Below, one piece after another: positions 44 through 28,000 of a stretch of 64,000 nt of DNA. The position numbers were made by a program, and so were the translations under genes. Below the pieces are notes generated by a model. It ran no database searches and was not told where the DNA came from. It worked only from the letters and a program-made list of their open reading frames with translations. Each line of letters starts with the position of its first letter. Position 1 is the first letter of the stretch. The DNA is from Sphaerodactylus townsendi (Eukaryota): assembly GCF_021028975.2 (NCBI RefSeq), contig NC_059428.1, forward strand, positions 74,958,001-75,022,000. The letters run 5' to 3'.

Positions 44-2052
44 AGAAGACAATACCCCCCCCTCTCCTCATCAGCTGACAGCTGACAGCCTGCGTAGCAG
101 GCTGTCCTGTCCACCATCCTTCTCCCTTCTACCTCCCAGGTGTCAACCTGCATAACCCTAGAAATGCTAGCGTGTTCCCCAGCTATCTGTCATGCTATTC
201 CCTAGCTGGCAATTGTAGTGGCTGAGTGTATCTGTGTGTGTGTCATTCGCTTTGGAAGTTGGCTCTACTTGGCAAGTCCAGGGTGTTTCTGTGTAGCGTT
301 TTTAATCTGTGTTCAACAGACTGGCATCCCTCTCAGTCCCTCCCAAGAGGAGCTGTTCATGAGCGGGAGTGAAGCGCCGTTTGAAACTGCAAAAGGAGCC
401 GTCAGGCTCGCCTTCCCACCCACCCAGGTGTCAATCTGCATAACCCTAGAAATGCTAGCGTGTTCCCCCAGCTATCCGTCATGCTATTCCCTAGCTGGCA
501 ATTGTAGTGGCTGAGTGTATCTGTGTGTGTGTGTGTGTGTGATTCACTTTGGAAGTTGGCTGTACTCGGCAAGTCCAGGGGCGTTTCTCCCTAGCGTTTG
601 TAATCTGCGTTCAACATGCTGGCATCCCCCCGCCCTTCCCCAAGCCCTGCTGTGTGTGTGTGTGTGTGTGAGAAGGAGAGAGCCCCTTGCTCGTTGAAAC
701 TGCAAAAGAGCTGCTAACGGGTGGGGTGTTCCCCTCCCACTTATCAAACGCTCATCTCCCCCCCCCTCGCTCTTCTCCTCGAGGGTTCTTGGAATAAGTC
801 CTTTATGTGTGCAGCGCGCCTGTTTCCAAACGTTGTTGTAAAAACAGACCCTTTCTCCCCTCCCAAAAGCCAAGGCGTTTGAATCATGCATCTTTCCCAT
901 CTCCGGAGCGGTCTTGGAATAAGCCCCCCCCCCCTATGTTTGCAGCCTGCTTCTTTCCAAACTTTGTTGTAAAAGCATCCTCCCTCCCCAAAGCCAAAGG
1001 GTTTACCGAAAACAATTGGGAACCGCCCAGCGCGTTCCTTCCCTGCCTACGCTGAGGTTTGAATACGAAAGCCCCGCAGTCTGCATTTCAGCACTATTTC
1101 CGCAAAAGGAAGCTCACCTTTTGTTTCTAAAGTGTATTGTGAAAAGCATCCTGCCCTACGGGGGCTGCTTTCTGAAAGCAGAGGTCGTCCAGAAAATAAA
1201 AAAAAAGGAGCAGAGAGCGTTTTGCAGGGTTTTTTCCCTAAAAGGAACGTGACTTCCTGAAAGAGTCCGTCCTGTGTTTTCCCTCCTCCCCCTCAGGGCA
1301 GTATGGCCGGGGAGCTTAATAGGGACTGGACCGATCTGTGCACCCTGCATGGTGTTCCTGACAAACCAGGAAGCATGCTTTTAAGAAAATAATAAAGTGT
1401 TTTTCCAGGCAAGAGCTGGTCGTTATTCTCGTGTGCTATGCAAAGCACCGCTTGTGTAATTCTGTCCCTCCCCAGCGAAGCAGCAGCTGCAGTCGCTGCA
1501 AAGTTTTCAGATTCTTCGTGATACCGCCACCCATGCGAGTTTTACGAAGCGCAGGTACAGCATACCGGCATGTCCCTTCTAGAGTGTCGAATGAAGGCGC
1601 AGAGCTTCCTGTCACCCTTGGGCTTATAATTTAATGGCAGGCAGTCCGCCGTGGTTGGGGCTGGGGATGACGCTGCAATTTGTGATTTCACGGGTGTGCG
1701 ACCCATCAATCAACCCGGCTCGCTCGGCAGAAGCCGGCGATGTCATTTTAGGGCGGTGCGGTGCTCTTTGGGGCTCCCCTGGAGATTGGGAACGGCCGAA
1801 TTTGGCCCAAAAAAGTTGATTTCCAGGCCATACGACGTGCCAATCAACCAGGCATGATCGGCAGAAGCCCGTGCAGTCGTTTTAGGGCGATGCGGGGCTC
1901 TTTGGTCGTTATCAGCCGGCGGCCATGTCGGGCGGGTCAAGTATCAATTTTGATTCCGTGTGCTGTGTGAGACGTCAATCAACTCGGCTCGATCTAGCGA
2001 GCGATTTAAGGCCGACCAATGAGGCGCCGGACCTCGGGGGCATAAATATGGG
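44..2052 (+). repeat. Left terminal inverted repeat (~2.0 kb)
   Basis: Reverse complement of 16290-18321. Similarity stops abruptly after ...GGGGGCATAAATATGGG (2052). The outer ~950 bp are nearly identical; the inner ~1 kb is indel-rich relative to the right copy. Confidence 0.95.
1683..2052 (+). promoter_or_regulatory. Putative inward-facing promoter at the inner end of the left TIR
   Basis: Three ~134-bp tandem units each contain CAATCAAC (1707, 1841, 1976). They are followed by CRE-like GACGTCA (1971), CCAAT (2016) and TATA-like CATAAATA (2041-2048), about 66 nt upstream of AGCATG (ATG 2114). Confidence 0.6.
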
Positions 2053-2113
2053 CAAGAAGAAGGTGTGGAAGCGCTTTTTCTGCCGTTGCTGGCTAGGAGG
2101 TGTTCTTGAAAGC

Positions 2114-2919
2114 ATGCCCGCGAATGAAAATATGCAGCCTGATACAGCGGTAATCGAAGGGTCGGGTGCTGAAGAAGGAATTTATGAAGACATGCAACCC
2201 GCTGTTCCGGACCCGGGAGAGGCTGTTATTTACGAGGAAATGGCTCCGGTACGAGTACCAGACAGGCGCCAGTGCATTCACTTCTTGCTAGATCAGGCAA
2301 GTATTATAGGGGGAAATGTGTGGTTGTTTTTTTTAAAAAAAAAATTGAAGCGTTGCAGTGCGTAGGGGGGGAAAAGCCAACCTGTTCTATTTTATCTTTT
2401 GTAGCTAGGGGATAGACGTGGTGAACGTTTCACAGGTGGTGAGTTGATCGATATTCTGGATGTTGTGTACACAAAACCACTAGCTAATTGCTGTCTCGAT
2501 TGCGAGATTATTGAATCTCACCAAAATCCAAGATCAGATGAAGAATCTGATTCTGGCCGGGGTTCAGAGGAAGAAAATGGACCGATGACCCCACCGCCAA
2601 CCCCTGCATCCACGCCGGCAAGCCCTGAGGAGCAGTCTGAGGCAGAGAAGATTATCTGTGTAGAGGAGTTATTTCCTGATGTAAGTATGCAAAAGAATAA
2701 AGGTAACAGTGTGTGTTAAGCCTACAACGTGAGCTGAATGCGTGCTTATGTTTTTAAATGTAGGTATGGAACGACCCGATCGACCTGGCAGCGTTGGCAA
2801 GACAAGTTGAAGGAGAATTGAACCCGGAGTGTTGTTACCGGTGTGGAATGGTTGAGCTGTTTCAAAAAAAAAAGCAGAGTCTTGGAGACCCAAGGGGGCT
2901 GATGCAACGTCAAAATTAA
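2114..2919 (+). CDS. Predicted 3-exon viral accessory protein (exons 2114-2296, 2405-2680, 2764-2919; ~204 aa, or 226 aa from ATG 2048), acidic and rich in short linear motifs
   Basis: Donor CAG|GCAAGT (GC-AG) pairs with acceptor TATCTTTTGTAG|, and donor GAT|GTAAGT pairs with acceptor TTTTTAAATGTAG|. Both introns are phase 0 and the joined frame is open. AATAAA at 3016-3021. Motifs: IYEDM, IYEEM, DSGRGS, TPPPTP, IICVEE, CCYRC. Confidence 0.7.
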
Positions 2920-3070
2920 GAGTTGTAGAATTGTTTTGTAGAATGGAAAAGCCAAAGTGCACAGGGGATGGTAGGGGTGTGGGTCGGTGCCCTCTCTTCT
3001 GTATATAGCGACCTGAATAAAGAAAAAGTATTCATTGCTGTAAAGAAAACGGTGTGTGTGCGTGTGTACC

Positions 3071-4192
3071 ATGTCACGGTCTCAAGAGGGTATCTTGAAA
3101 GCTATTTATTTTAACCCCGGGGAAGTAGGGAGTCTTGGAGGGGTGGATGCGCTTTACAGGGCAGCGCGTAGGAAGGGGTATAAGCAAAGCAGGAATGATG
3201 TAGCAAAATGGCTGGCCGATCAAGATGCATATGCCGTGCACAAAACAGCCAGGGTGCATTTTAAAAGGAACAGGGTTATAGTTGGTGACATCGATGAACA
3301 ATGGCAGGCGGACCTAATGGACGTTCAAAAATATTCCCAATACAATGCCGGTTACAAATACATTTTAACGGTAATAGACATTCTTTCAAAATACGCGTGG
3401 GCAGTCCCGCTCAAAGATAAGACGGGCGGTGAGGTGGCGGGGGCTTTCAAAACTCTATTTGCGGAGGGGCGCCGCCCTCATAAACTGCAAACGGATGAGG
3501 GGAAAGAGTTTTTAAATAAAAAAGTAGCGGAGGTGCTGCGACAATACGGCATAGACCATTTTACCACGAGAAATGAGGTGAAGGCAGCGGTCGTGGAGCG
3601 TTTTAATCGAACCCTCCGTTCACGCATGGCACATTTTTTCACGGCCGAGAACACTTTCAAATATATTAACGTGCTGAAGCAACTCTTAAAAAGTTACAAC
3701 CACAGTTTTCACAGGACCATACAGGCCCGGCCCGCAGATGTCAACACATCCAATTCGTTAGCTGTGTGGAGGCGTGTTTATGGTTCGCAGGCTATTCAAA
3801 AGCAGCCCAGCCGTGCCTTTAAGAACGGGGACCGCGTGAGGGTGTCTAGAGCAAAAGCTAGATTCGAAAAGGGATATGAGCAGACATTCACGGATGAAAT
3901 TTTTATCATAGACGGCACAATCAATAGAGGCATCCGTCCTATGTTCCGGTTGGTTGACTTTCAGGGGGATGCCATTCTAGGGGGGTTCTACCCAGAAGAG
4001 CTCCAGAAAGTTATCAACTGGGAAGACCGTGTATACAGGATTGAGAAAGTTATAAAAAGCAAGACAGAGAAGAAAAGCAAGCTTTTGTTCGTGAAGTGGA
4101 AGGGGTGGCCGTCTAAATTTAACAGCTGGGTGGCGGCCAAAGACGTGACGGAGCTAAATGGAGGAGGAGGGGTTTTACATGCTGCTCCCTAG
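3071..4192 (+). CDS. Maverick retroviral-like (rve) DDE integrase with C-terminal chromodomain
   Basis: Catalytic motifs WQADL, LQTDEGKEF and VVERFNRTL. Chromodomain YRIEKVI...LFVKWKGWPSKFNSWV. The ORF is intact. Confidence 0.97.
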   Translation: MSRSQEGILKAIYFNPGEVGSLGGVDALYRAARRKGYKQSRNDVAKWLADQDAYAVHKTARVHFKRNRVIVGDIDEQWQADLMDVQKYSQYNAGYKYILTVIDILSKYAWAVPLKDKTGGEVAGAFKTLFAEGRRPHKLQTDEGKEFLNKKVAEVLRQYGIDHFTTRNEVKAAVVERFNRTLRSRMAHFFTAENTFKYINVLKQLLKSYNHSFHRTIQARPADVNTSNSLAVWRRVYGSQAIQKQPSRAFKNGDRVRVSRAKARFEKGYEQTFTDEIFIIDGTINRGIRPMFRLVDFQGDAILGGFYPEELQKVINWEDRVYRIEKVIKSKTEKKSKLLFVKWKGWPSKFNSWVAAKDVTELNGGGGVLHAAP

Positions 4193-8502: not shown

Positions 8503-9174
8503 TCAGGCCCTTTTAACAGCCCCAGCTGATTTCTTTAGAATGTAAGCAGCAGGGATGTCTGGGGGAAACAGACCGGTCCTCAACCTGTAAGATTCGGGGG
8601 TGTTGGTGTTTAAATCCACCACTAGGTAGCCGTAGGGCTTGCTCACGGCGTCTTCGTAGACCTCCAGAAAGAATTTACTTTTTCCTGGGTACATTTGGCG
8701 GGCCAGGATGGCTATCTGCAACCGGTCTCTGGGGTTTTTAAATAAAACTAGATATTTGGCATTCAAATGAATAGACCTGCTGCTTTTCCCCTGGCAGAAT
8801 AAGTTCTGCACTATAAAAATAATACTGAGATTCCTGTGATGGGAATACTTGGTGAAGGCATTTTCAATTTCGCCGTTGGTAGAAGCAGAATTCATCAAGT
8901 CATCCACAATGATCAGGTTTCTTTTATTAGGCGGTAACAAAGCATCATCGTTCAAAGAGGGGGGGATGCCCTCTACAAACTGTATAAAGGGGAAACGCGC
9001 GTACAATTCTTTATACAGAGGCTGGAAACAGGAGTAACACCACACAATATTTTCAGGCATTTGAGACAACGTCCCCTCAGCGTGCACAAGCAGATTCTTA
9101 ATAAAGTAACTCTTTCCACAATTGCTGGGCCCTGCAATAATGGCAGAGAACGGGTGCTGCCAACGCGTGTCCAT
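8503..9174 (-). CDS. A32/FtsK-like genome packaging ATPase
   Basis: Walker A GPSNCGKS, Walker B LIIVDD, FTKYSHHRN, VQNLF and KPYGYLVVD. Intact. Confidence 0.95.
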   Translation of the reverse strand: MDTRWQHPFSAIIAGPSNCGKSYFIKNLLVHAEGTLSQMPENIVWCYSCFQPLYKELYARFPFIQFVEGIPPSLNDDALLPPNKRNLIIVDDLMNSASTNGEIENAFTKYSHHRNLSIIFIVQNLFCQGKSSRSIHLNAKYLVLFKNPRDRLQIAILARQMYPGKSKFFLEVYEDAVSKPYGYLVVDLNTNTPESYRLRTGLFPPDIPAAYILKKSAGAVKRA

Positions 9175-9176
9175 CC

Positions 9177-12100
9177 TCAATATCCGTAAGGCAGACTTCG
9201 AAAATTGTCCTTCAGTACACGCTTATCATAAACCACCTTCTGTGTCTTTTTAAGAACCTGGGTTTTAATAGAAAAACTCTGTTTATGTCTGACAATCCCT
9301 GGGTGCTCCACCACTATTGATGCCTGGTTTTCCCCACCCACGTGCGTAAAGACTAATTCTTTCAGGCTGTCAAAATTAATTTTTTGGCTGTTGGCATAGT
9401 TCAGAGTGATCCCCTTCACTTTCAGGCATGCCCCCCCACCCGACAGCTTGTACCCATATGACTTGGGCCCTGTTGAGACAAATTCTGTGATATGCTGACC
9501 CTCTGGTATTTCGCTGGTCAGCTCCCCTAAATAATCACCAAGACGAGGCTTCCAATCGTCTTCTTTGCTCCTAAATATAACAGAATCAGTGTCATAGTAT
9601 AAGCACCTCTCGCCCAGTTTGTTTAACAGCTTGTACAATTCTAATCGGCCGTAAGCTGTGGTAAAGCATGCTATGTACACGTTGGTGTTCCCAGAGGCGG
9701 CCAGGGTTGGTTTAGAGAGCCTCCATGACACACAGACCGCATCATCACTGACAAAATCACACCAAGTGGGTTCATACTTATCTGAAAAAACCAGCTCAAA
9801 ATACCTGTTTGGATCTCTGACAATCTCAGTTCTTGGCAAGTTGGACCTCTGTGCAAATTTACCCCACAGAGAATTAAGAAACAGTTTAGCAACCTGCCTC
9901 TTTGCAGGGTTTGGCTTGATATGCGTGGGCCGCAGGGCAACCTCCTCCTTTGTATAAAAATCTTCTACATACTTTTTATCTGCCTCGCTGACTGCCCACG
10001 ATGGGTAGCCCGACGCTTCTTGCTTATTTCTCAGATGGCACTTAATGTGTTCTGAAAACAAGTCTGTGGATTGCTCCTCAAAATGCCACACTTCAAAGAT
10101 CTCCCCCACTCTATACCCCTGTTCTATGGCCACAGCGATCTCACAAGTGCACCACGTGCCTATCAATGCCCTTTCTTCGTCGTTGTGAGTGCAGGGTACC
10201 TGGAGTTTTTGGGCCGCACAGGTCCTGCACAATGTGAAATAGAGCTTGCCATCGGTCTTGCTAGGTAGTACCGGGAAAAACAGACCTCTGGGGGGGTACA
10301 CTTTCACCTTAACCAATCCAAAATATTCTGTCAAGGGCCTGAAATTCTCATAAATGATCACCGGGTGGCCTTTTGGGTAAACTTTGTTAGCATTTACAAA
10401 GGGATACAAGCTGCAATAATCCACGTATGCAACTTGTTCATTTTTTTCAGTTTTGTGGTATAGTGTCACAGCATTGGTCCGCCCCCCAAAGAGAGCGTCT
10501 CTGGGTTTTAATGGCTCTGGGAAACGGGCCTCTTTCAGGAAAGCTTTTACACGTTCATCTGTGGCTTTTAGATTTTCCCACTCATGTTCCCATATTTCTA
10601 TGACTCGAAACCCCTTTTTTTTCAATTCATCAGACCTCTGGCGGGTAGCAGAGTTTAACTCTGCGTATGTTCTGTTGCTCACTCTGGAAAACGCCTGGGG
10701 GTCTGTGCAGAGGGCACAGCCATGCCATTCACATCCTAAGAATTCGTACCCTATCTTCTCGCCATTTTGCACCGCGGTGAATCAGCTATTCAGAAAATAT
10801 TTCCTCGCTTTAAAATTTCACCCTTTGAGAGCTGCGGTTCGATTTGAATGTTTTCTGAGTGTTCGATGTAACTCAGCCATTGAATAGAGGCTGTGGAAAA
10901 CCTTTTTACCTGCTTGTGATAGTGGTCTGCAGGTGGGATGGCTATAGACTGCGGCCGTAGGAAATTAAGCCTATACATGGCTAGACACACGCTGGCCAAG
11001 GTTGTGTACTGCAAGGGGTCTATAGAGAGATTGTCCTCCCTAGTGGTCATGTTAATGATTTCCTGTCTGTACAGAATGCAGGCTTTTTCTAGAATTTCCA
11101 CATCTTTTTGACAATAATAAGCCAACTCTCTTTGAAGGTCAAAGGTCGCTCTTTTGTTTTGTTCATACCACACCATGAAATCAGACCTCTCTTTCTCCTT
11201 CATGTAATTTACCGTAAAATTTGCATGGGAGTGCCCTTCCAGGTAATTTTGATTAGCACGTGTATTAAACAGATGGGGGAAGAACCCTTTGCACCCCTCG
11301 AAGCCCAGGGCCCCGGGTAATTTTGCTAAAGTGAGGGGTAGGTGTTCAGAGAATCAATGAATTTTATACCGTGTGACTTAATGGTTACGCACATAAGCTT
11401 CCCCCCAACAGTCAACAGCTGTGGATCTAGCCTCTCTTCAATCAGCCGACGGACCAAGAAATAGCAATCATAAGATTTTGAATTATGGGCGATAAAAGTA
11501 CAATCCCTAAACTTCTTCTTCTGCAATGTGATGGTGGCAATAAAATCTTCTACACATTTTTCACCTTTGAACACCCAAGAACACCCTCTTATTTTCCATT
11601 CGACGTCCCCTGACCCCTCCCAGGCCTTTGCATATAGATAACAGGGCCTGTGAAGCCAGTCATCCGTTTCCTCTTGGGTGCTTTCTATGTCATAAAAGAT
11701 ATATCTTTCAGAACTTAGGGGGCTTTCAAGCGGCTGAATATAGCACAGTTCATGTGCGGTTTCGTGCTGCTCAAGTCGTCCCCCACACTGTCTACAAACT
11801 CTCCCCTTACATTTTATAAACTGGTGCTGCATCTTTTGGTAAGATTTGCAATCGGCACACCACTTTCGAGAAATGCATGCCGTGTCATCATTTTCCACAC
11901 GTTCCCCGTGCTTCCTGAAGCAATACTCGCTGCTACAGACCATTAAACAATTTTGGCATTGTACGGACTCCCCCTGGATAGTTTTACACTCTGTAGTTGC
12001 ACAAATTCTACAAAAGTTGGCGCAAGTGGTTATCGTACAGCGTTTGACAGTAGGGGCATAGATTTTTAGCACCCACAAGCCCCCCGCACATTCAAAACGC

Positions 12101-13330
12101 CATAATAGTGTTCCTGATGCAACAGGAGAGTATGTGTCTTTGGAAAACGTGGTGGATTGGCTGTTTTAAAGATGTCCCAACCTTTTGTGGGCATGCAAAG
12201 AACAACATGTATGTTCACATTCAAATGTTCTTCAACAATGGACACATCGGACAGGGTCACAGCCTTCTGAGTAGACCACCCGAGCTGCGTATGGAGCTGC
12301 TTAGCCGCCTCTAACAATTCGGAATCTGTAAAATCCCATCCCTCTGCCCTTTTGATCACCCCCATCAAGCAACCCGCAAAACATAGGTTTTCACCCTCGC
12401 TATTCAAATCGATCAAATATCTACGTTTTTTGTCAATGATTGCGCTGTAAGGGATGGATTTAAGGTTCCTTCGTGCACCACCCCTGGGGGGGCTTGTAAT
12501 GGTTGCTATAAGCCTCAGTGTGTCAGAGTTCAAAATTTCTCTATTGCTCTGAAGCGTGCTTGCCACAAAATCTAAAAACTCTGACGCGTTAATGTTGCTT
12601 TTGCATTTCTTAAAGGAATAAACAGGGTTTTGCTCCCCCCCTCACTTCTTCCAATCTAGAACTGAACAAAATCCCCCTCCTGAATCCTCCCACATATTTC
12701 ATCCACAATGCTTTGCACACCTCTTGTAAGAGCCTCTATTGCAGCTGAAAAAGATGTCACCCTATCTAGATTAACAAAACGGAATTCTTCGCTAACCACC
12801 AGTGACCTGAATCTTTGGTATGGTCTTTCCCAAGATCTCACCCTCTCCACGTGTACTTCAGGCTGCTCTGGTGAAGCGTTAATATCACAGCCCTCTTCAC
12901 CCTCCATCCCACTGTCTCCGCCCCCCCGCTTCAGACCCCGTGGGGGTTGACAAAATTGACTCCCCGTCACCCTGTAAACCACAGCCTGTCTGCGTGACAG
13001 GCATTGCGCAGTCCATATACATAGCAGGAGTTTTATTATTCTGGACATCAGCCACAAGCTTGTAAAATTGGTTGCATATAACCTCGTGTGCTGCCTGCTT
13101 TTGCGCAGCCCACTTACATGCCTCATCAGCTTCTTTTTTGGAAGCTTGTTTTTTAATCAATACGTCAAGAAGTTCATCACCCAGGCGGTCCATTTGTTCT
13201 CTGTCTTCTCTCCGTTTATCTTTGCCCCCTTCTGCACCCTTCGACTTCTTGGCTGCCACCTGTTTTTGGGTTGGGGTGTCAGTCGGTGAACGCTTAGACT
13301 TTGAAAGGGCCTTTCTATTTGGGGCCTGGT
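9177..13330 (-). pseudogene. Protein-primed family B DNA polymerase (terminal-protein region, OTU-like domain, Zn-binding region, exonuclease, inserted Vsr-like nuclease, polymerase), broken by at least 6 frameshifts
   Basis: Motifs LQSN, ENLCF...EHYY, YIFYDIES (Exo I), AHNSKSYD (Exo II), KGFFPHLFN, YCQKDVEIL (Exo III), YEFLGCEWHG, DYCSLYP, KLFLNSLWGKF and YYDTDS. They are spread over the ORF fragments 12897-13259, 12656-13126, 12066-12566, 11326-12078, 10790-11203 and 9177-10772. Confidence 0.95.
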
Positions 13331-13434
13331 CTGCAATAAAACAAAGAAAAAAGACCGATTAAAAAATCAAGTGTAGTCCGCCACAGCTCTCTTCTTCCCA
13401 TGTTAAAATAACCAGCTCTGGACATCTTGAAACA

Positions 13435-13488
<54 letters not shown>

Positions 13489-13664
13489 AAGAAAAACAAG
13501 ACAGGCTGGGAGATAAGTGGCAAATTGGGGAGCTGGATCTGTAGCACGTGGGATCCATGTGACATTATTGTCATTTTATGAGATTATTCCTTTTCCACCA
13601 TACAGACTCCACATCACAGCTTACAAAATCTAAGACAGAACACACAGTTACTAAAGCAGCCTCC

Positions 13665-14560
13665 CTCCTCCCCCCATAGAAAAAAGACAGTATGTTTAAC
13701 AAAGCATATTTCTGAATTTCTGCACAATGAACACTCATTTTTTTAATCCCTTTGACACTCACTGGATTTTTTTTTGGGCAGAGCATTGGTGGGTGGCGAC
13801 GGCCCTGGAGATTGAAGAACTCCTGCTGAGATATTCAGAGAAGGCACCGGGGCACCTGTGCTTGATGCCCGTTGATTATACGGCATCAGATCAGCATTTG
13901 TAACAGCTAATCCACTTCCTGAAAACAGACATTAAAATTATGCATAGTATATAGCCATGTTTCCTCTTCTGACAGCCCGTCCCTTCCGTGGCTCATGGAA
14001 CTTTTCTACACACAAGGGTATGTAGAGGCCCTCTCAAGCATATTTTTCATGCAGCTTTTTAGCCTTAAAAGCATGACAATTATTATCTCCCTCCCTCCAC
14101 CCACCACCCCCCCATAGAAAAAAGATAGTATGTTTAACAAAGCATATTAACTTCTGCACAATGCACACTCATTTTTTAATCCCTATGACACTCACTGGAA
14201 TTTGGCAGCAGACTATGGATGGGTGGCAACGGCACTGGAGATGGAAGAACTCCTGCTGACGCTGCAGAGATGTTCAGAGCTGGCACCGGGGCACCTGTGG
14301 CCGATGGCCATTGATTATACATGTTTAGACCACTAGTTGTAGCAGGGTGACCATTTCCTGAAAACAGACATTTAAATTATGCATAGCATACAGCCATGTT
14401 TTCTCTTCTGATGTCCCCCTCACCCCCCCCCCCACTTCTGTGGCTCATGGAACTTTTCCACACACAAGCGTATGTAGAGGACCTCTCAAGCATATTTTTC
14501 ATGCAGCTTTTTACCCTTAAAAAGCATGACAATTCTTATCCCCCTCCACTCACCCCCCCC
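13665..14560. repeat. Tandem duplication of a ~440-bp exon+intron unit inside the Maverick
   Basis: CCCCATAGAAAAAAGA..TATGTTTAACAAAGCATATT recurs at ~13670 and ~14110. CCTGAAAACAGACATT recurs at ~13918 and ~14357. Confidence 0.9.
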
Positions 14561-15038
14561 ATTCTGTTATGTTCTATGTACCCCTGTTTTACACGTGACC
14601 CACCCATTTCTTCAGTCTGTGGGGGAAAATATGGATCTATCTGGGTTTGCGCAGGGATAAAGGTTTGATCGCCGGTCTCTTTTAATATGGCATCTGTGAT
14701 ATAAAAACCAGGCAGGCCTGTTAATAAAATTCTGTTTTTTGCAGGATCTTACCACCCTCTAAAACCCATATATAAAATTACCTAGCGGATCCTCATAATG
14801 GCCAGCAGGGTTCACTGCTGCGTCATAATTATACCCATTCACAAATTTTTTAAGAAGATTTATGGGAGCTGCTTCGGTTCCTGTATTTTGGGGAATATTT
14901 CAGAAGACACACACTTCTTATTATCCGGGCCATTGCTTTCTTAAAAATACCCCCCACACACACACACCCCACACACCCCAAACCACTACAGGTCTTACCT
15001 TCGGCAGCTTGGAGCATTTCCGCATCAGTAGCATCCAT
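13763..15038 (-). CDS. Predicted spliced 5' exons of the pPolB unit: 15038-14999, 14880-14782, 14693-14604, 14357-14196, 13918-13763, joining the acceptor at 13330
   Basis: All introns are GT-AG and phase 1. Internal exons are 99, 90, 162 and 156 nt, all multiples of 3 and stop-free. The joined frame matches the 12897..13259 ORF. Confidence 0.65.
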
Positions 15039-15354
15039 TTTATTTTATTTTTTAATGAATTTTTTAAGGCTGCTTCACTCAGAAGACCCTCTAAGCCACG
15101 GGAGCACGTGTGACTGTCTTGGGGCCAGTGGGTCTAACAGTTATATTTTTCAAGTAAGGGGGTGGGCCTGTGCCTTATCTGGGTTTACCAACTGCCCATC
15201 TGTGAGCAACTGCGTGTTGTGTGGGGCCTCCTGGCTGTGGTCATCTCCTAATCAGATAAGCATTAAAACACCACCCCTCCCAAGAAACAGAAAAACTTTT
15301 AAAGAGTTTCAATAAATGTTTTATTGAATATAATTCTGCATATTTGGTTTTATT

Positions 15355-16237
15355 TTACTTGGAAAAGAATACATTCAAAGTACGACTACCAACATTCAAC
15401 GCCAGATATTTTTTTACAAGAACCACAAAATCCTGGTTACATTTGTCAGAGAATTTCTGCAAGCATTCTGTAGGACAGCTAGCCGACTCCACATTTTTCA
15501 CAAATTTGGCCAGAGTGACAAAATGGCTGTTGTTCAGTGACAAACACCCAGTACACAATCCAAGATGCGTGATTACTTGAATAATTGGTTCTAAACAGAC
15601 ATTGTGACACACAGACCTCAACCGTTCATCAAAATCACATTGTATACAATCGTGGCTGTTCAAATCCTTGCAATTATTCTGGCAGGCGGTGCACATGGCA
15701 TGGCATAAATCATTCAGACACCATTTCATAATTACAGAAAGGGTTGCTCTTGAGAGTTGCCCAATAGCAGATCTTCTTTTTGAGGGTTCCACACTTGGTA
15801 TATCAGCCACCCTGAGTTTTGCGTTGCACCTCATGACTTCGGCCATGGACTTTCTGTCCCTGAGAGAATCGGCCATGCTGAAAAGGGTGAAGTTCTGCAA
15901 AAAAACAAAAATAGCATTTTAAAACCCCTCTGCAACACTATACAGCATCTCCCCCAGTGCCCCAACCTGTCCTGATCCATCTCACCTCCATCTTGACATG
16001 CTTATTCTGTTCAACACCATCTTCTGTTGAAACACAGGCATCACGGGTCTGCTTCTGGTCGGTTGGTCCAGCATCACCCTCAGACCCCGGAAACAGCTTT
16101 TTGGCACATTTCTTGAAAAAAATGTCCTCGTCGCTATCATCAGCATCCATAGCCGCACGCTGCCTCTTCAAACGCCTCCCTCTGGTCGGGGCAGGGGGTG
16201 GAGAAAGTGAAAAAAGGCTCCCTGCGGGGGTTTCCAT
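15355..16237 (-). CDS. Predicted 2-exon viral accessory protein (16237-15986, 15894-15355; ~263 aa) with NLS, KKLF motif and Cys/His-rich domain
   Basis: Donor GAG|GTGAGA and acceptor TTTTTTTTGCAG|AAC, phase 0, join ORFs 15938..16237 and 15355..15900. AATAAA lies immediately after the stop. Contains CTAC...HDC. Confidence 0.75.
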
Positions 16238-16289
16238 GCTCAGCTATGAAACAGGTTTGGTTTCGCAGCTGTCTCCAAGGCCCAGAATA

Positions 16290-16660
16290 CCCATATTTAT
16301 GCCCCCGAGGTCCGGCGCCTCATTGGTCGGCCTTAAATCGCTCGCTAGATCGAGCCGAGTTGATTGACGTCTCACACGGCACACGGAATCAAAAATTGAT
16401 ACCCCGACTACCGGACATGGTCACCGGCTGATAATCACCAAAGAGCCCCTGCATCGCTCTAAAACGACTAACGGGCTTCTGCCGCATCATGCCTGGTTGA
16501 TTGGCACGCTGTGATGGCCCGAAATCACCTTTTGGGCCAAATTTCGCCGCTCCTAATCTCCAGGGGAACCAGCACTGCACCGCCTTAAAATGACATCGCC
16601 GGGCTTCTGCCGCAGCTTGTGCCGGGTTGATTGATGGGTCGCGACGCCTGCGAAATCACA
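16290..16660 (-). promoter_or_regulatory. Putative inward-facing promoter at the inner end of the right TIR
   Basis: Mirror copy of the left cassette. TATA-like CATAAATA at 16301-16294 lies about 57 nt upstream of AGCATG (ATG 16237). Confidence 0.6.
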
Positions 16661-18321
16661 AATTGCAGCGTCATCCCCAGCTCCCAACCACGGGCGACCT
16701 GCCTCGCTGCCATTAAATTATAAGCTCAAGGGTGACAGACAGCTCTGCTGCCTTCATTCGAAAGACTTCTAGGAAGGGACATGCCCGGCATGCCTTTTCA
16801 ACCACGCCTGGCCCGCCTCCATGGGTGGCGTGTATAATGTAAGTTCGAAAACTTTGCAGCTTAATTTCGCCGCCGAGCGCCAGGGTGAGGAGAGGGGACA
16901 GAGTACACAACGGTGCTTTGCATAGCAGCCACGAGAGCCAACGACTCCGCCTTTGCCTGGAAAAACACTTTATTATTTTAAAAGCATGCTTCCTGGTCGG
17001 TTGTCAGGAACACCATGCAGGGTACGGCAATAGACGTCCAGTCCTCGACAAGCTCCCCGGCCCTACTGCCCTGAGGGGAGGAGGGAAAACACAGGAAGGA
17101 CTCTTTCAGGAAGTCATTACTGTTTTAGGGAAACCCTGCAAAACGCCTTCGCTCCTTTTTTTTTTTTTTTTTCTGGACGCATCCTCTGCTTTCAGAAAGC
17201 AGCCCCGTGAGGGCAGGGATGCTTTTCAATACACTGTAGGGACAAGAGGGGAGCGTCCTCTTGCATAAATTGTGCTAAAATGCAGCCTGCCGGGCTTTAT
17301 GTGATTCAAACCTCGCTACCAGAGACGGGGAAGGGCATCGCCGGGGTCGGTTCACCAATTGTTTTCGTAAACCTTGGGGTTTGGGGAGGGGGGATGCTTT
17401 TACAACGAAGTTTGGAAAGAAGCAGGCTGCAAACATAGGCTTATCTCCAGACCGCTCCGGAGATGGGAAAGATGCATGATTCAAACGCCTTGGCTTTTGG
17501 GAGGGGAGAAAGGGTCTGTTTTTACAACAACGTTTGGAAACAGGCGCGCTGCACACATAAAGGACTTATTCCAAGAACCCTCCGGAGAAGGAGGGGGCGG
17601 GGGTGGGGGGAGATGAGCGTTTGATAAGTGGGAGGGGAACACCCCACCCGTTAGCAGCTCTTTTGCAGTTTCAACGAGCAAGGGGCTCTCTCTCTCACAC
17701 ACACACACCCACACACAGCAGGGCTTGGGGAAGGGCGGGGGGATGCCAGCATGTTGAACGCAGATTACAAACGCTAGGGAGAAACGCCCCTGGACTTGCC
17801 GAGTACAGCCAACTTCCAAAGTGAATGACACACACACACACACAGATACACTCAGCCACTACAATTGCCAGCTAGGGAATAGCATGACGGATAGCTGGGG
17901 GAACACGCTAGCATTTCTAGGGTTATGCAGATTGACACCTGGGTGGGTGGGAAGGCGAGCCTGACGGCTCCTTTTGCAGTTTCAAACGGCACTTCACTCC
18001 CGCTCATGAACAGCTCCTCTTGGGAGGGACTGAGAGGGATGCCAGTCTGTTGAACACAGATTAAAAACGCTACACAGAAACGCCCTGGACTTGCCAAGTA
18101 GAGCCAACTTCCAAAGCGAATGACACACACACAGATACACTCAGCCACTACAATTGCCAGCTAGGGAATAGCATGACGGATAGCTGGGGAACACGCTAGC
18201 ATTTCTAGGGTTATGCAGATTGACACCTGGGAGGTAGAAGGGAGAAGGATGGTGGACAGGACAGCCTGCTACGCAGGCTGTCAGCTGTCAGATGATGAGG
18301 AGAGGGGGGGTATTGTCTTCT
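16290..18321 (-). repeat. Right terminal inverted repeat (~2.0 kb)
   Basis: Begins CCCATATTTATGCCCCCGAGG at 16290, the reverse complement of the left TIR inner end. The mirrored ORFs 218..514/17852..18148 confirm the inversion. Confidence 0.95.
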
Positions 18322-25067: not shown

Positions 25068-28000
25068 CTAGGCATTGGAAGAAACACTGTGATGGGCATT
25101 TCCATTCTGGGATTCATTGGCTTTGTAACTGGCCTGTGCATCATTATCAGTATCATCTGGTGATTTCAAGTCTGCCTTCTCCACCGAGTTGCTGGATGTC
25201 GTGGGCTTGCAGATAAAACAAAAAAATTTGAAACACATGAGCAGTCCTTCTGAAATATTAGATGAGAAAAGTTTCTTGCATGGATGACAAAACTGGTAAA
25301 ACACAAGCATAAAAAGAACAGCTATGCAATAGCCAATCAACAGCTGCAAGACCAGCAATGGGGCACACACATACATGTAAACATCAGTCTTATACATATA
25401 CCACATCAACAAGAGAAAAGCATTCTCAAAGAACCTTATTATATAATATAAAGCCAGCCTGTACCAGTTCTGGGATTTGTCAATTAGATCAGAATCGTTT
25501 AGCTTCAGCTGCACAGCAGACCAGCAGAACATGTTGATGCCAGCATACAGAAAAGTGAGAAGACCCAGGACAATGGTGGTGCCTACTTTACTCAAAGCTT
25601 TCTCTATGTTTTCTGGCAAAGAACACTTACTTTGCCAGAAGAGAATCCATGGGTAGAAGAAAAAGGCAAAGACATTGATAAGCACCACAGGAAGGATCCA
25701 GATTTGAAGGACGGAACTGAAGAGGACAAGAACAATAACCCTGGTAGCAATCTCAAAGCTTCGCCAGAGGAAGACGCAGAGGTAGGCAGCAGGTTTCACA
25801 CTGATGTTGTAATCATCATACTTAATCTTAATGGCCAGGATGTTGCAGCGCAGTGCTCCATACACTATCGATAGGAGAGAAAGCACCATGAAGATACCTG
25901 GCAAGAGAAAGAAAGCCATTAGAGCTTTCTGAAAGGAGCCATGCCTTGTATCCAGAGACACATTACAAATAAAGGACTTCTCGTGTACCATTCAATAGCT
26001 AAAATTTAAAGCTCAACCCAACAAACAAAATAAAGCAGTGGTCCTTGGCAACCAATTTCCCTAAAATTATATCCCCATATTAGCAAACACATTACCTAAT
26101 TTTTTTTTTGCATGCCCCCAAATGGTCTGGTGCATCTTTCTGGGGACATACATAGGCCAGGCTGAGAACAACTACCATAAAGGAATCACCCAGCACAGCT
26201 GCCTATTGTCTTTTACCTGTGCAGACAACCCCTGAAAGGTATAAAGCAATGGCAGAAGACTGTCATATCCAACTACTTTAGGACTCAAGAGAAACTCACT
26301 ATAATAATATGCTTTTTACTTATAGTTAAATAAATAGTGGCTTAAGGGGCAAAATAATTGAGCTCACTATTGCAATGAAGTTTTGAATTGTTAGGGATGT
26401 TGACCAGGAGGTGTTTTTCTAAAGTTTGAAGTTTGAAGCCCAAATAGAATGCATTCCCCAAGTTATTATTATTATTATTAGTTAGGAAGAGAACTGTTAA
26501 AAGAGTACCTGCATATTTAATAACCAAAGTCAAGGGAGCCATCAAAAGCAAAAGGCTTATTTTAAAAATAAGGAAGCTCTACCTCAATGGAATAAACAGA
26601 AGGGAGCACAGTCTGGCAAAAGAAATGCTAATGGTATCTGACTTTGGGGTTGTAGTGAACAGCTCAATGAAATGGCAGTGTGTTGCAGCAGTGAAAAAGC
26701 ACACTATGCTGGGGATTATTAGGTAAGGGACTGCGAGGAAAGCCAATATTATAGTGACCAGTACAGATCTATGATATCTCCTCCCTCTCTCAAAACACTA
26801 GAACATCAAGAGCATCCAATGAAATTCATGGCCAATAGCTTCAGAATGCACAAAAAGAAATACTTCATTCAAGGAGTGAATTAAATGTGGAATTCATTGT
26901 CAGAGGATGTGGTGATGGCACAAATTGCTTTAAAAGGGGTTAAGACAAATTCACAGAGCACAGGTCCATCAGTAGCTTCTAGCGATAGTGATCAAAGGGA
27001 ACCTCCACATTCAGAGGCAGTAAACCTCTGAATACCAGTGCCAGAAGATATCATTGGGGAAGGCCTTGGACTCTATGCCCTGTTATTGGTCCCCCAAAGT
27101 AACTGGCTGCTAGTATGTAACAGAGGATGCTGGGGTAGATGGACCACTGGTGTGATCCAGCAGGACTCTTCTTATGTTCTTAATCAATCTAACTTGCCTC
27201 CTCCTCACCACAGGCCAGTTGTCCAACATTGTACAACCCCTTTTGCCAATCTTGCCAATCAGAAAGCTTTTTTTTTTAGTATACCTGGATTTCCCTCCCC
27301 TCCCCAAGCCTGGGACAATCGTACCTTTTATATTCCAATCATTTGCACTTCCTGTCACTGGCACTAGAATTTTTGTCCAAATCATGCTCTGTTTACCTGG
27401 TTTTGCTGTAGTTTACCTGGTCATACTGTAGTTTCAGCTCCTGCTTTGTGCAGCTATTTCAATATACTTTCCCATGGACAAAACTTGTTTGTTTTGGATT
27501 TTGCTTTTGATCTCATTTGAACTATTGCCCAAGATCCAGAAACACATCTTGATACAGGACAGGTAATCTCCTTCCCCAGTCTCTTCCACATCCCCTTCAG
27601 AAATATTCTGCACTGCATGTTTATGGAATGATTACATTTATTGTGGTCATCCTAGCATTCATTTGTGTTTAATGTTATTCTAACTGCTTGAGTGTATTTC
27701 ATATTCTATCCAAGGAATTATCCCTATTCCAATAAACTTCCAGATCTCAGTTATATTCCATAATTACTTAGGCACCTTCAGCCCTAACACTTTGTTACAG
27801 ATCCCTAAAGAGTATGATGGTCTGAGTCCAGATTTATAAACAGGAAAGACCCAACTGGGTATGCATAAGTCAAAGCAAACCAACATCAAAAAATGTAATA
27901 CCTTAGCTACACTCTATAGGAACATCAAACTGGTGGTACAAAATGACAGTACATCTAATATCTACGTAAACATGTACACAATAACAATTATACACAGAAG

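Follow-up and report, generated by a model that had tools for sequence, protein, structure and literature searches.

A spliced accessory gene beside the integrase of a gecko Maverick, with a conserved tyrosine site, a DSG site and repeated cysteine modules

Is there a real gene between the left terminal repeat and the integrase of a gecko Maverick, and if so, what might it do to the host? The question is raised by a stretch of 64,000 nucleotides from Sphaerodactylus townsendi (assembly GCF_021028975.2, contig NC_059428.1, positions 74,958,001 to 75,022,000), which I will call the window, and whose first 18.3 kb are a Maverick/adintovirus. An earlier reading, made from the letters alone (the sequence-only reading), had joined three open pieces near the left end of the element, across a GC-AG and a GT-AG intron, both in phase 0, into an acidic protein packed with motifs for host signalling proteins. 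It proposed that the protein couples mimicry of tyrosine-kinase and PI3K ligands with manipulation of RB and of SCF ubiquitin ligases. The existence of the gene and the functions proposed for it are considered here in turn.

The three-exon gene is confirmed, with both introns and with the motifs where they had been put. The proposed coordinates are all in the sequence (Table 1), as are a run of ten A's at 2864-2873, a TAG at 3006-3008 and the AATAAA at 3016. The product has 226 amino acids if it begins at the ATG at 2048 and 204 if it begins at the ATG at 2114. Its CCYRC, which had been called C-terminal, is present but lies about 25 residues ahead of the C-terminus. A protein search with exon 2 returned a single record, RefSeq XP_048350042.1 (model P0001 below), identical across the query, and this record, mapped to the window, has its GC-AG and GT-AG junctions at precisely these positions. 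As a computed model, in all likelihood made from this very DNA, it is independent in method only. Gene models of the RefSeq kind take GC-AG introns from aligned transcripts. The model begins 41 codons earlier, at the ATG at 1925, a start that I reject; the ATG at 2048, which follows AAAT and is common to all 13 copies read, is the likely start codon, since the extension from 1925 is open in only one of them.

To be read as a gene, the structure should recur where the element does. DNA and protein searches of this genome gave 61, 30 and 18 matches, from which 31 distinct copies were taken; copies without counted splice sites are truncated, decayed or missed by the search patterns. The donor of the first intron occurs at the same codon in 18 of the 31, always eight codons past a cysteine (the search required GT or GC). 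The window shares GC with two of its close copies, while 15 copies have GT, one of them 89% identical to the window. The second donor is GT in 20 of the 21 copies in which the motif upstream of it was found, AG precedes all 31 exon-3-type starts (in 22 copies), and the same junctions are seen in a paralog at 38% identity. The ratio of nonsynonymous to synonymous substitution rates (dN/dS), calculated pairwise by the method of Nei and Gojobori, exon by exon, from 18 copies with open exons, is below one in every pair giving a value (0.00-0.64), with synonymous sites saturated in many of the pairs. Between the window and divergent copies it is 0.20-0.48 in exon 1 (four copies), 0.18-0.42 in exon 2 and 0.20-0.39 in exon 3. 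These values support purifying selection on the exons.

The family is also found in other geckos. A HMMER search of 1.84 billion representative proteins gave nine at an E value of 0.001, and the number rose to 28 when clusters were consulted and a profile was searched with. None of the 28 models has been characterised; they come from Sphaerodactylus, Heteronotia, Gekko, Paroedura and Eublepharis, which represent at least three gecko families, and are continuous across the position of the second junction. In the other genera the gene is known from these protein models, and the introns and the integrase neighbourhood are those of the present genome. That each species has several nearly identical copies is in keeping with a mobile element. 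The protein searches returned gecko records only, and relatives in other reptiles may be missed, the genes of repeats being often unannotated. A scan of IMG/VR produced 45 pattern matches and no confirmed one, and the ESM Atlas yielded no usable match for P0001 and unnamed clusters at 0.90-0.92 for the relative P0012.

Among the short motifs, two are kept across genera. The acidic Tyr-x-Glu-Met site that had been proposed is conserved, in the form acidic-[PG]-[IVT]-Y-x-[ED]-M, in 16 of the 28 models and four of the five genera, most of the 12 without it being short models. An acidic run before the tyrosine, a hydrophobic -1 position and Met at +3 are constant, and +1 may be E, V or M; this set fits the preference of the SH2 domains of p85. 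Models from Gekko and Paroedura have the site twice, and in two from Gekko it is YEEI, variants that indicate Src-family SH2 domains as well. YEEM is a likely ligand for the SH2 domains of PI3K p85 and of the Src family. The DSGxx[ST] site, found in 20 of the 28 models and again in four of the five genera, has likewise held up, and DSGRGS of the window is likely a phosphodegron for beta-TrCP. A general degron of the FBXW7 type, which had also been claimed, fared worse: the pattern occurs in nine of the 28 proteins, all of one species, and other genera keep RAQ[TS]P. When the 226-residue product was shuffled 20,000 times, two YxxM appeared in 0.8% of cases, DSGxx[ST] in 0.46%, LxCxE in 14% and all four classes of motif in 0.005%, for patterns that were picked after the sequence had been seen.

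The sequence-only reading had further seen a myristoyl or palmitoyl anchor in an N-terminus of Met-Gly, basic residues and cysteine. The basic, two-cysteine character of the N-terminus is kept across subfamilies in this genome, and its amphipathic pattern makes a lipid or membrane anchor likely, but the glycine is replaced by Glu in subfamily B and myristoylation is not supported as a trait of the family. There is no transmembrane stretch in P0001, where the highest hydropathy over 19 residues is 0.94.

The most conserved part of the protein is the second of two cysteine modules: 13 invariant alignment columns fall within it or at M90. The cysteine of IICVE is invariant in the ten proteins of alignment A1, and the invariant residues run from it through P-x-V-W...D...L-A...P-x-C-C-x-R-C. 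A module is about 45 residues of the form C...CCxxC, with 28-35 residues from the first cysteine to CCxxC. A profile of the last unit finds two units in Sphaerodactylus proteins and up to four in those of Heteronotia and Gekko, the extra units scoring weakly (per-sequence E values of 1e-7 to 0.016). In this genome each module is cut by an intron eight codons past its first cysteine, and the presence of an intron at the same spot in each unit indicates that a unit already containing the intron was duplicated. AlphaFold models of two relatives, P0004 and P0005, have a mean predicted local distance difference test score (pLDDT) of 57 and 60, rising to 70-86 in the modules (in P0004 about 73-75 in module 1 and about 79-85 in module 2). 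In both, each unit is predicted as a small helical domain, and the disordered linkers between units carry the motifs. The four cysteines suggest that the modules may bind zinc. A Pfam scan of 21 family members found no meaningful family (the best E value, 0.0013, was to an acidic domain of unknown function), and a sequence search of PDB had no match at an E value of 10. Foldseek at an E value of 0.001 found none in PDB (first model) or BFVD, which is no proof of a new fold. The best Z scores of VIA-align were 3.4 and 3.8, from models of moderate confidence with module 2 barely tested alone. A likeness to the zinc domains of E7 and E6 or to an F-box received no support, F-box chains reaching Z scores of only 2.4-3.4.

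How might such a protein act? The best reading is that it would work like middle T of polyomaviruses or M2 of a herpesvirus, while being unrelated to either. It would be a lipid-anchored membrane protein whose acidic tyrosines, once phosphorylated by Src-family kinases, recruit p85 of PI3K and push the growth and survival of the host cell, a proposal to which I give even credence. The gene would be transcribed from a promoter in the terminal repeat to give an early accessory protein, which a basic amphipathic helix and acylated cysteines would hold at the membrane (with myristoylation possible only where the glycine is kept). Src-family kinases would phosphorylate the acidic tyrosines, pYEEM would dock the SH2 domains of p85 and perhaps those of the Src family, and PI3K-AKT signalling would rise. 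Binding of beta-TrCP at the phosphorylated DSGxx[ST] would limit the life of the protein or serve as a decoy, and the two to four helical cysteine modules, binding zinc, would form the part that holds a target or a kinase. The binding steps follow the precedent of known motifs: YXXM of alphavirus nsP3 binds p85 at the plasma membrane (PMC7226951), M2 of MHV68 uses two tyrosines to bind p85 (PMC4133380), and large T of JC virus is bound by beta-TrCP through DSGHGSS (PMC10674619). Among Beta adintoviruses, 'Adintoc5:Bcl2' is the label found ahead of Integrase (PMC8502044, text of Fig. S2), which fits a slot for survival genes.

A number of observations weigh against this proposal. Binding, phosphorylation and localisation are all read from motifs. 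The tyrosine itself is missing in P0002 and in the Eublepharis model P0023, and DSGxx[ST] is missing in Eublepharis and in P0003/P0011. DSGHETG in large T of SV40 does not bind beta-TrCP, so that strings like DSG can be inactive (PMC10674619). YEEM would fit a YxxPhi sorting signal as well. The cysteine-bearing N-terminus is present only in Sphaerodactylus copies and two Gekko models, the other models starting downstream, and dN/dS, having been taken on exons open from end to end, is biased downwards. RNA reads are few, amounting to 7, 3 and 13 on the region in three RNA runs of a related organism, in which no splice joint reached the threshold of three reads, and one read of run X8 passes unspliced through the second donor. 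Among the sequence runs listed as containing the sequence, none is recorded as RNA. The junction reads that had been called for come to one fragment: in run X7 a single read pair covers 2632-2680 exactly, with 49 letters falling in the bin 2632-2692, none in 2693-2753 and 72 letters in the bin 2754-2814. Since 72 letters occupy a bin of 61 bases, next to a stretch of zero depth, one read appears to be split across intron 2, and this one pair would span it; intron 1 has no supporting read in the three runs.

The same parts could be put together as an immune-evasion adaptor resembling Nef or Vpu, whose features lie behind the idea. The cysteine modules would then bind a surface protein of the host, YxxM would be a sorting signal for clathrin adaptors, and DSGxxS would bring in beta-TrCP to degrade the target. 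An anchor, acidic clusters, YxxPhi and DSGxx[ST] do occur together here, two to four modules and an alternative last exon (see below) are what one expects of a host-facing binder, and YXXM motifs double as endocytic sorting signals, according to the title of a reference in PMC7226951. I nevertheless regard this as unlikely, as Met or Ile, and neither Leu nor Phe, stands at +3 in a preserved acidic-Ile-Tyr context, which a kinase and SH2 site fits better, and as P0001 has no transmembrane stretch. Distinctly unlikely is a function like that of E1A or E7, in which IICVE, as the sequence-only reading had it, binds RB pocket proteins and together with the degrons drives entry into S phase, LxCxE being gained and lost at different cysteines by lineage. 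IICVEELF fits an ELM-style pattern, LxCxE strings occur in three of 11 representative proteins at three different cysteines, and subfamily B has a CR1-like ELIELF. P0003/P0011 have LYCYE and a CK2/acidic tract at another cysteine, close to the LYCYE of E7 from human papillomavirus 16 (PMC3785498), and Oncoids, the adintovirus proteins discussed below, are defined by such motifs (PMC8502044). However, the L or I and the E around the cysteine of IICVE are kept in four of 21 genomic copies (in one more, a stop codon replaces the Glu), and LxCxE stands at this position in one of the 11 representative proteins and at two of 24 module starts, against a chance of 14% per protein. The cysteine has a counterpart equally far before intron 1 and begins a predicted helix, unlike bound LxCxE, which is extended (PMC3785498). 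P0001 has no CK2 site after IICVE and no CR1 motif, and a membrane anchor would hold the protein away from nuclear RB. On this comparison IICVE is the start of a module, its cysteine probably structural and opening a repeated unit that is predicted to fold, and not an RB ligand of the family as a whole; given LYCYE in P0003/P0011, RB binding may come and go among lineages.

A quite improbable alternative concedes that the family was once functional but holds that the window copy and its near relatives are decaying passengers in which the motifs no longer matter. It draws on the tail of the protein, out of frame in the window and in copies L002 and L004, on the fragmented polymerase region of the element, on the many frame breaks of close copies and on the very low expression. 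Set against these, no stop interrupts the three exons of the window before the run of A's, a RefSeq model exists, many of the breaks fall in homopolymer runs and may be assembly errors, and the decay of some copies would have no bearing on the function of the family. That the exons are chance open frames, joined alike by a reader and by annotation software, seems to me barely credible: there is no listed RNA junction and the gene models are computed from DNA, but splice sites and phase are conserved, dN/dS is below one, and the sequence across the junction is contiguous in models from five genera. Copy L045/L083, to which P0003/P0011 correspond, has LYCYE in exon 2 with a CK2 site and an acidic tract, and its element shows long matches to integrase and capsid. 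Judged by its motifs, this LYCYE is a better candidate for an Oncoid than the motif in the window.

Where does the gene stand among known systems? It resembles Oncoids in being an adintovirus accessory gene with short host-binding motifs next to paired cysteines and, in the window copy, LXCXE (PMC8502044). Adjacent paired cysteines, a feature of Oncoids, are present as two CCxxC units. Oncoids typically lie upstream of PolB and have LXCXE before a CK2 site or CR1, and the string 'splic' has no match in the main text of the paper that describes them (PMC8502044). The gecko gene, in contrast, lies upstream of the integrase, is spliced, lacks CR1 and the CK2 site, and conserves instead the tyrosine site and the DSG degron. 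Middle T has a J domain and a small-t/PP2A region; no J domain or small-t family of Pfam was found among the 21 members scanned, nor any sequence match in PDB. What the gecko protein would share with polyomavirus middle T and ALTO is a spliced gene of a small DNA virus that encodes a membrane-bound scaffold with no enzyme activity, with tyrosines that bind SH2 domains and PxxP stretches, and middle T of Merkel cell polyomavirus serves as a precedent for the motifs (PMC10740393). It differs from middle T in having no transmembrane segment, a predicted anchor at the N-terminus and no link in sequence or fold that could be found. As it departs from Oncoids in two features and from middle T in two, I file the gene under neither. 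M2 of MHV68 and nsP3 of alphaviruses recruit p85 at membranes through a disordered region with a pair of tyrosines close together, or with YXXM; they are unrelated proteins, and in the portions of the sources available neither is described with DSG degrons or tandem cysteine modules (PMC4133380, PMC7226951). The C-terminal region of large T of JC and BK viruses has a beta-TrCP site of the DSGHGS type (PMC10674619). In several gecko copies the site is DSGHGS or DSGHSS, with a stretch rich in TP after it; the common ground with large T, a helicase of the nucleus, is the short motif only. Finally, intact vertebrate Mavericks have two gene modules facing the centre, accessory flanks and terminal inverted repeats, as here, but are reported, in the part of the account available, to have no introns, unlike this gene with its two (Barreat and Katzourakis 2021, PMC8097293). 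Accessory regions of Mavericks can thus hold multi-exon genes, and the gene was likely missed because the surveys consulted looked at single open reading frames. A search of the literature, as far as its texts were available, found no description of it; it may already bear an arbitrary name in the annotated genomes that accompany bioRxiv 10.1101/2024.03.25.586562.

It has been proposed that adintoviruses are small DNA tumour viruses, with no link to disease established, and a case report on a tortoise found adintovirus transcripts in papilloma and in healthy tissue and drew no causal connection (PMC10812802). The proposal rested on LxCxE strings alone. The present gene is a concrete, conserved and testable candidate for host manipulation of another type, the mimicry of tyrosine-kinase and PI3K ligands, and it adds a cysteine module with no family or fold match. 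It also carries a warning, that an LxCxE beside a CxxC may owe its cysteine to structure. Function can be tested without altering anything, since there are natural paralogs in which single motifs are missing: XP_048338307 lacks the tyrosine, the paralog at the XP_048354592 locus lacks LxCxE and Gly2, and XP_048357471 lacks DSG.

As to the 3' end of the gene, the sequence-only reading had noted that a shift of one base in the run of A's would extend exon 3 to the TAG at 3006-3008 and add a cysteine-rich tail. The downstream frame does belong to the gene: a conserved tail follows the last module in relatives, is in frame in the models of four other genera, and among 15 copies read in this genome is in frame in five and out of frame in four, the other six having another or a decayed tail. 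In the window, as in L002 and L004, it is out of frame. The homology with relatives extends only to about 2935, and a cysteine-rich C-terminal tail, its end not being conserved in relatives, is rejected. The last exon of the window copy is therefore shortened, yet all of the proposed functional sites are kept. The tail falls out of frame at the run of A's right after the last module in several lineages (the window at 2864-2873, L002, L004, L007, L005, L008, L010), which may be shared decay, an assembly error or a slippage site; slippery sequences have been proposed for penton genes of adintoviruses (bioRxiv 10.1101/2024.03.25.586562). In some copies the first AATAAA is followed by another unit resembling exon 3, and P0011 and P0003, which match one such copy, use one unit each. 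L045 (1500-1970) and L012 (1628-2120, both in gene orientation) have two such units in succession, each with an acceptor and an AATAAA of its own. They are likely alternative last exons, and I reject a fourth constitutive exon, the unit being more likely an alternative last exon behind its own AATAAA.

Table 1. Positions in the window of the spliced gene, its modules and motifs, and adjoining features.
Feature	Positions	Strand	Remarks
Exon 1	2048..2296	+	83 codons (61 from ATG 2114); 3' end the same in RefSeq model P0001
Intron 1	2297..2404	+	108 nucleotides, GC-AG, phase 0; donor CAG/GCAAGT, ends TTTTGTAG; in-frame stop inside
Exon 2	2405..2680	+	92 codons; borders shared with RefSeq model P0001
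Intron 2	2681..2763	+	83 nucleotides, GT-AG, phase 0; donor GAT/GTAAGT
Exon 3 as read in the window copy	2764..2919	+	51 codons and stop at 2917-2919; broken near the run of A's at 2864-2873
Counterpart of the conserved family tail, not in frame in the window copy	2875..2935	+	from comparison with copies and relatives
Polyadenylation signal AATAAA	3016..3021	+	same place in divergent copies
Basic amphipathic N-terminus, two Cys	2048..2098	+	maximum hydrophobic moment 0.70; divergent copies share the pattern
First tyrosine site, YEDM	2183..2194	+	Met varies among copies: YEAA, YKAA, YEAM
Second, best-conserved tyrosine site, YEEM	2231..2242	+	divergent copies YEEM, YVEM or YMEM after an acidic run
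Cysteine module 1	2273..2520	+	interrupted by intron 1, eight codons past the first Cys; CCxxC at 2489-2503
DSGRGS in acidic linker	2549..2566	+	some genomic copies DSGHGL
TPPPT, proline-directed phosphosite	2588..2602	+	FBXW7-type pattern
Cysteine module 2	2657..2865	+	interrupted by intron 2, eight codons past the Cys of IICVE (2657); CCYRC at 2830-2844
Left terminal inverted repeat of the Maverick	56..2052	.	arms matched to the right side
Integrase (rve) with chromodomain	3071..4192	+	Pfam rve E 2e-13, Chromo E 3.5e-8; directly downstream of the spliced gene

The position of the gene supports its being an accessory gene of a Maverick/adintovirus. It sits between the left terminal repeat and the integrase, and the order of gene and then integrase recurs in other full elements: the gene is directly upstream of an integrase in seven of 20 stretches of 10 kb that were fetched, five others belonging to subfamily B, with no integrase seen. 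The left repeat (about 56-2052) is matched by a right one at about 16290-18310; the arms 56-538 and 17828-18310 are 99% identical, and further arms follow inward, the last of them (1948-2052 and 16290-16394) again 99% identical. The left repeat ends just past the start codon at 2048, and hence it likely supplies the promoter of the gene; the right repeat ends at the ATG of the right-hand gene, and the terminal repeat probably carries the promoter of both. An open reading frame at 8503-9174 has weak matches to Pox_A32 (E 5e-4) and Adeno_IVa2 (E 9e-3), neither of which reaches the curated cut-off, and is a candidate for the packaging ATPase. The candidate frames for a protein-primed PolB and for jelly-roll capsid proteins in the window had no Pfam match and are putatively assigned by position, and the Beta class of the element is likewise presumptive. 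The presumed polymerase region, at 11326-13126 on the minus strand, is in several open pieces, and the copy is not intact as assembled.

Extension of two subfamily B stretches to 30 kb revealed an element of 17 kb with terminal inverted repeats of 5.6 kb, whose core holds only the spliced gene and a homologue, about 30% identical, of the open reading frame at 15355-15876 of the window. Compared with the window element, it showed no match to integrase, capsid, ATPase or polymerase. Its copies are L082 with L099/L100 (G000:C5:72.032-72.049 Mb), L079 with L101/L102 (G000:C6:45.79 Mb), L080, L081 and L098, and five copies are 92-96% identical over 9-10 kb. A wider proposal, tentative and in my view somewhat doubtful, would make of all this an undescribed family of spliced early genes in gecko adintoviruses. 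It would be a germline-borne analogue of middle T, a lipid-anchored recruiter of PI3K and Src that combines a degron for beta-TrCP with zinc modules in tandem, their fold new, and that has diversified through duplicated exons and alternative last exons, and the 17-kb element, satellite-like and without replication or capsid genes, would spread by tuning the growth signalling of the host.

Three other loci in the window deserve mention. At 15355-16294 on the minus strand is a second gene, probably spliced, at whose ATG the right repeat ends. It has an acidic first part with CAKKLFP, presumably akin to a cyclin-docking motif, and a cysteine-rich open reading frame of 173 amino acids with no Pfam match. 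A probable third multi-exon gene lies at about 13000-15060 on the minus strand, upstream of the polymerase region and so in the usual position of an Oncoid, and in it a unit of exon and intron of about 440 bases is present twice (repeat families D3, D4 and D11-D16). Outside the element, at 25068-25991 on the minus strand, an open reading frame encodes a hydrophobic product of 307 amino acids and looks like the last exon of an XK-related membrane protein of the host.

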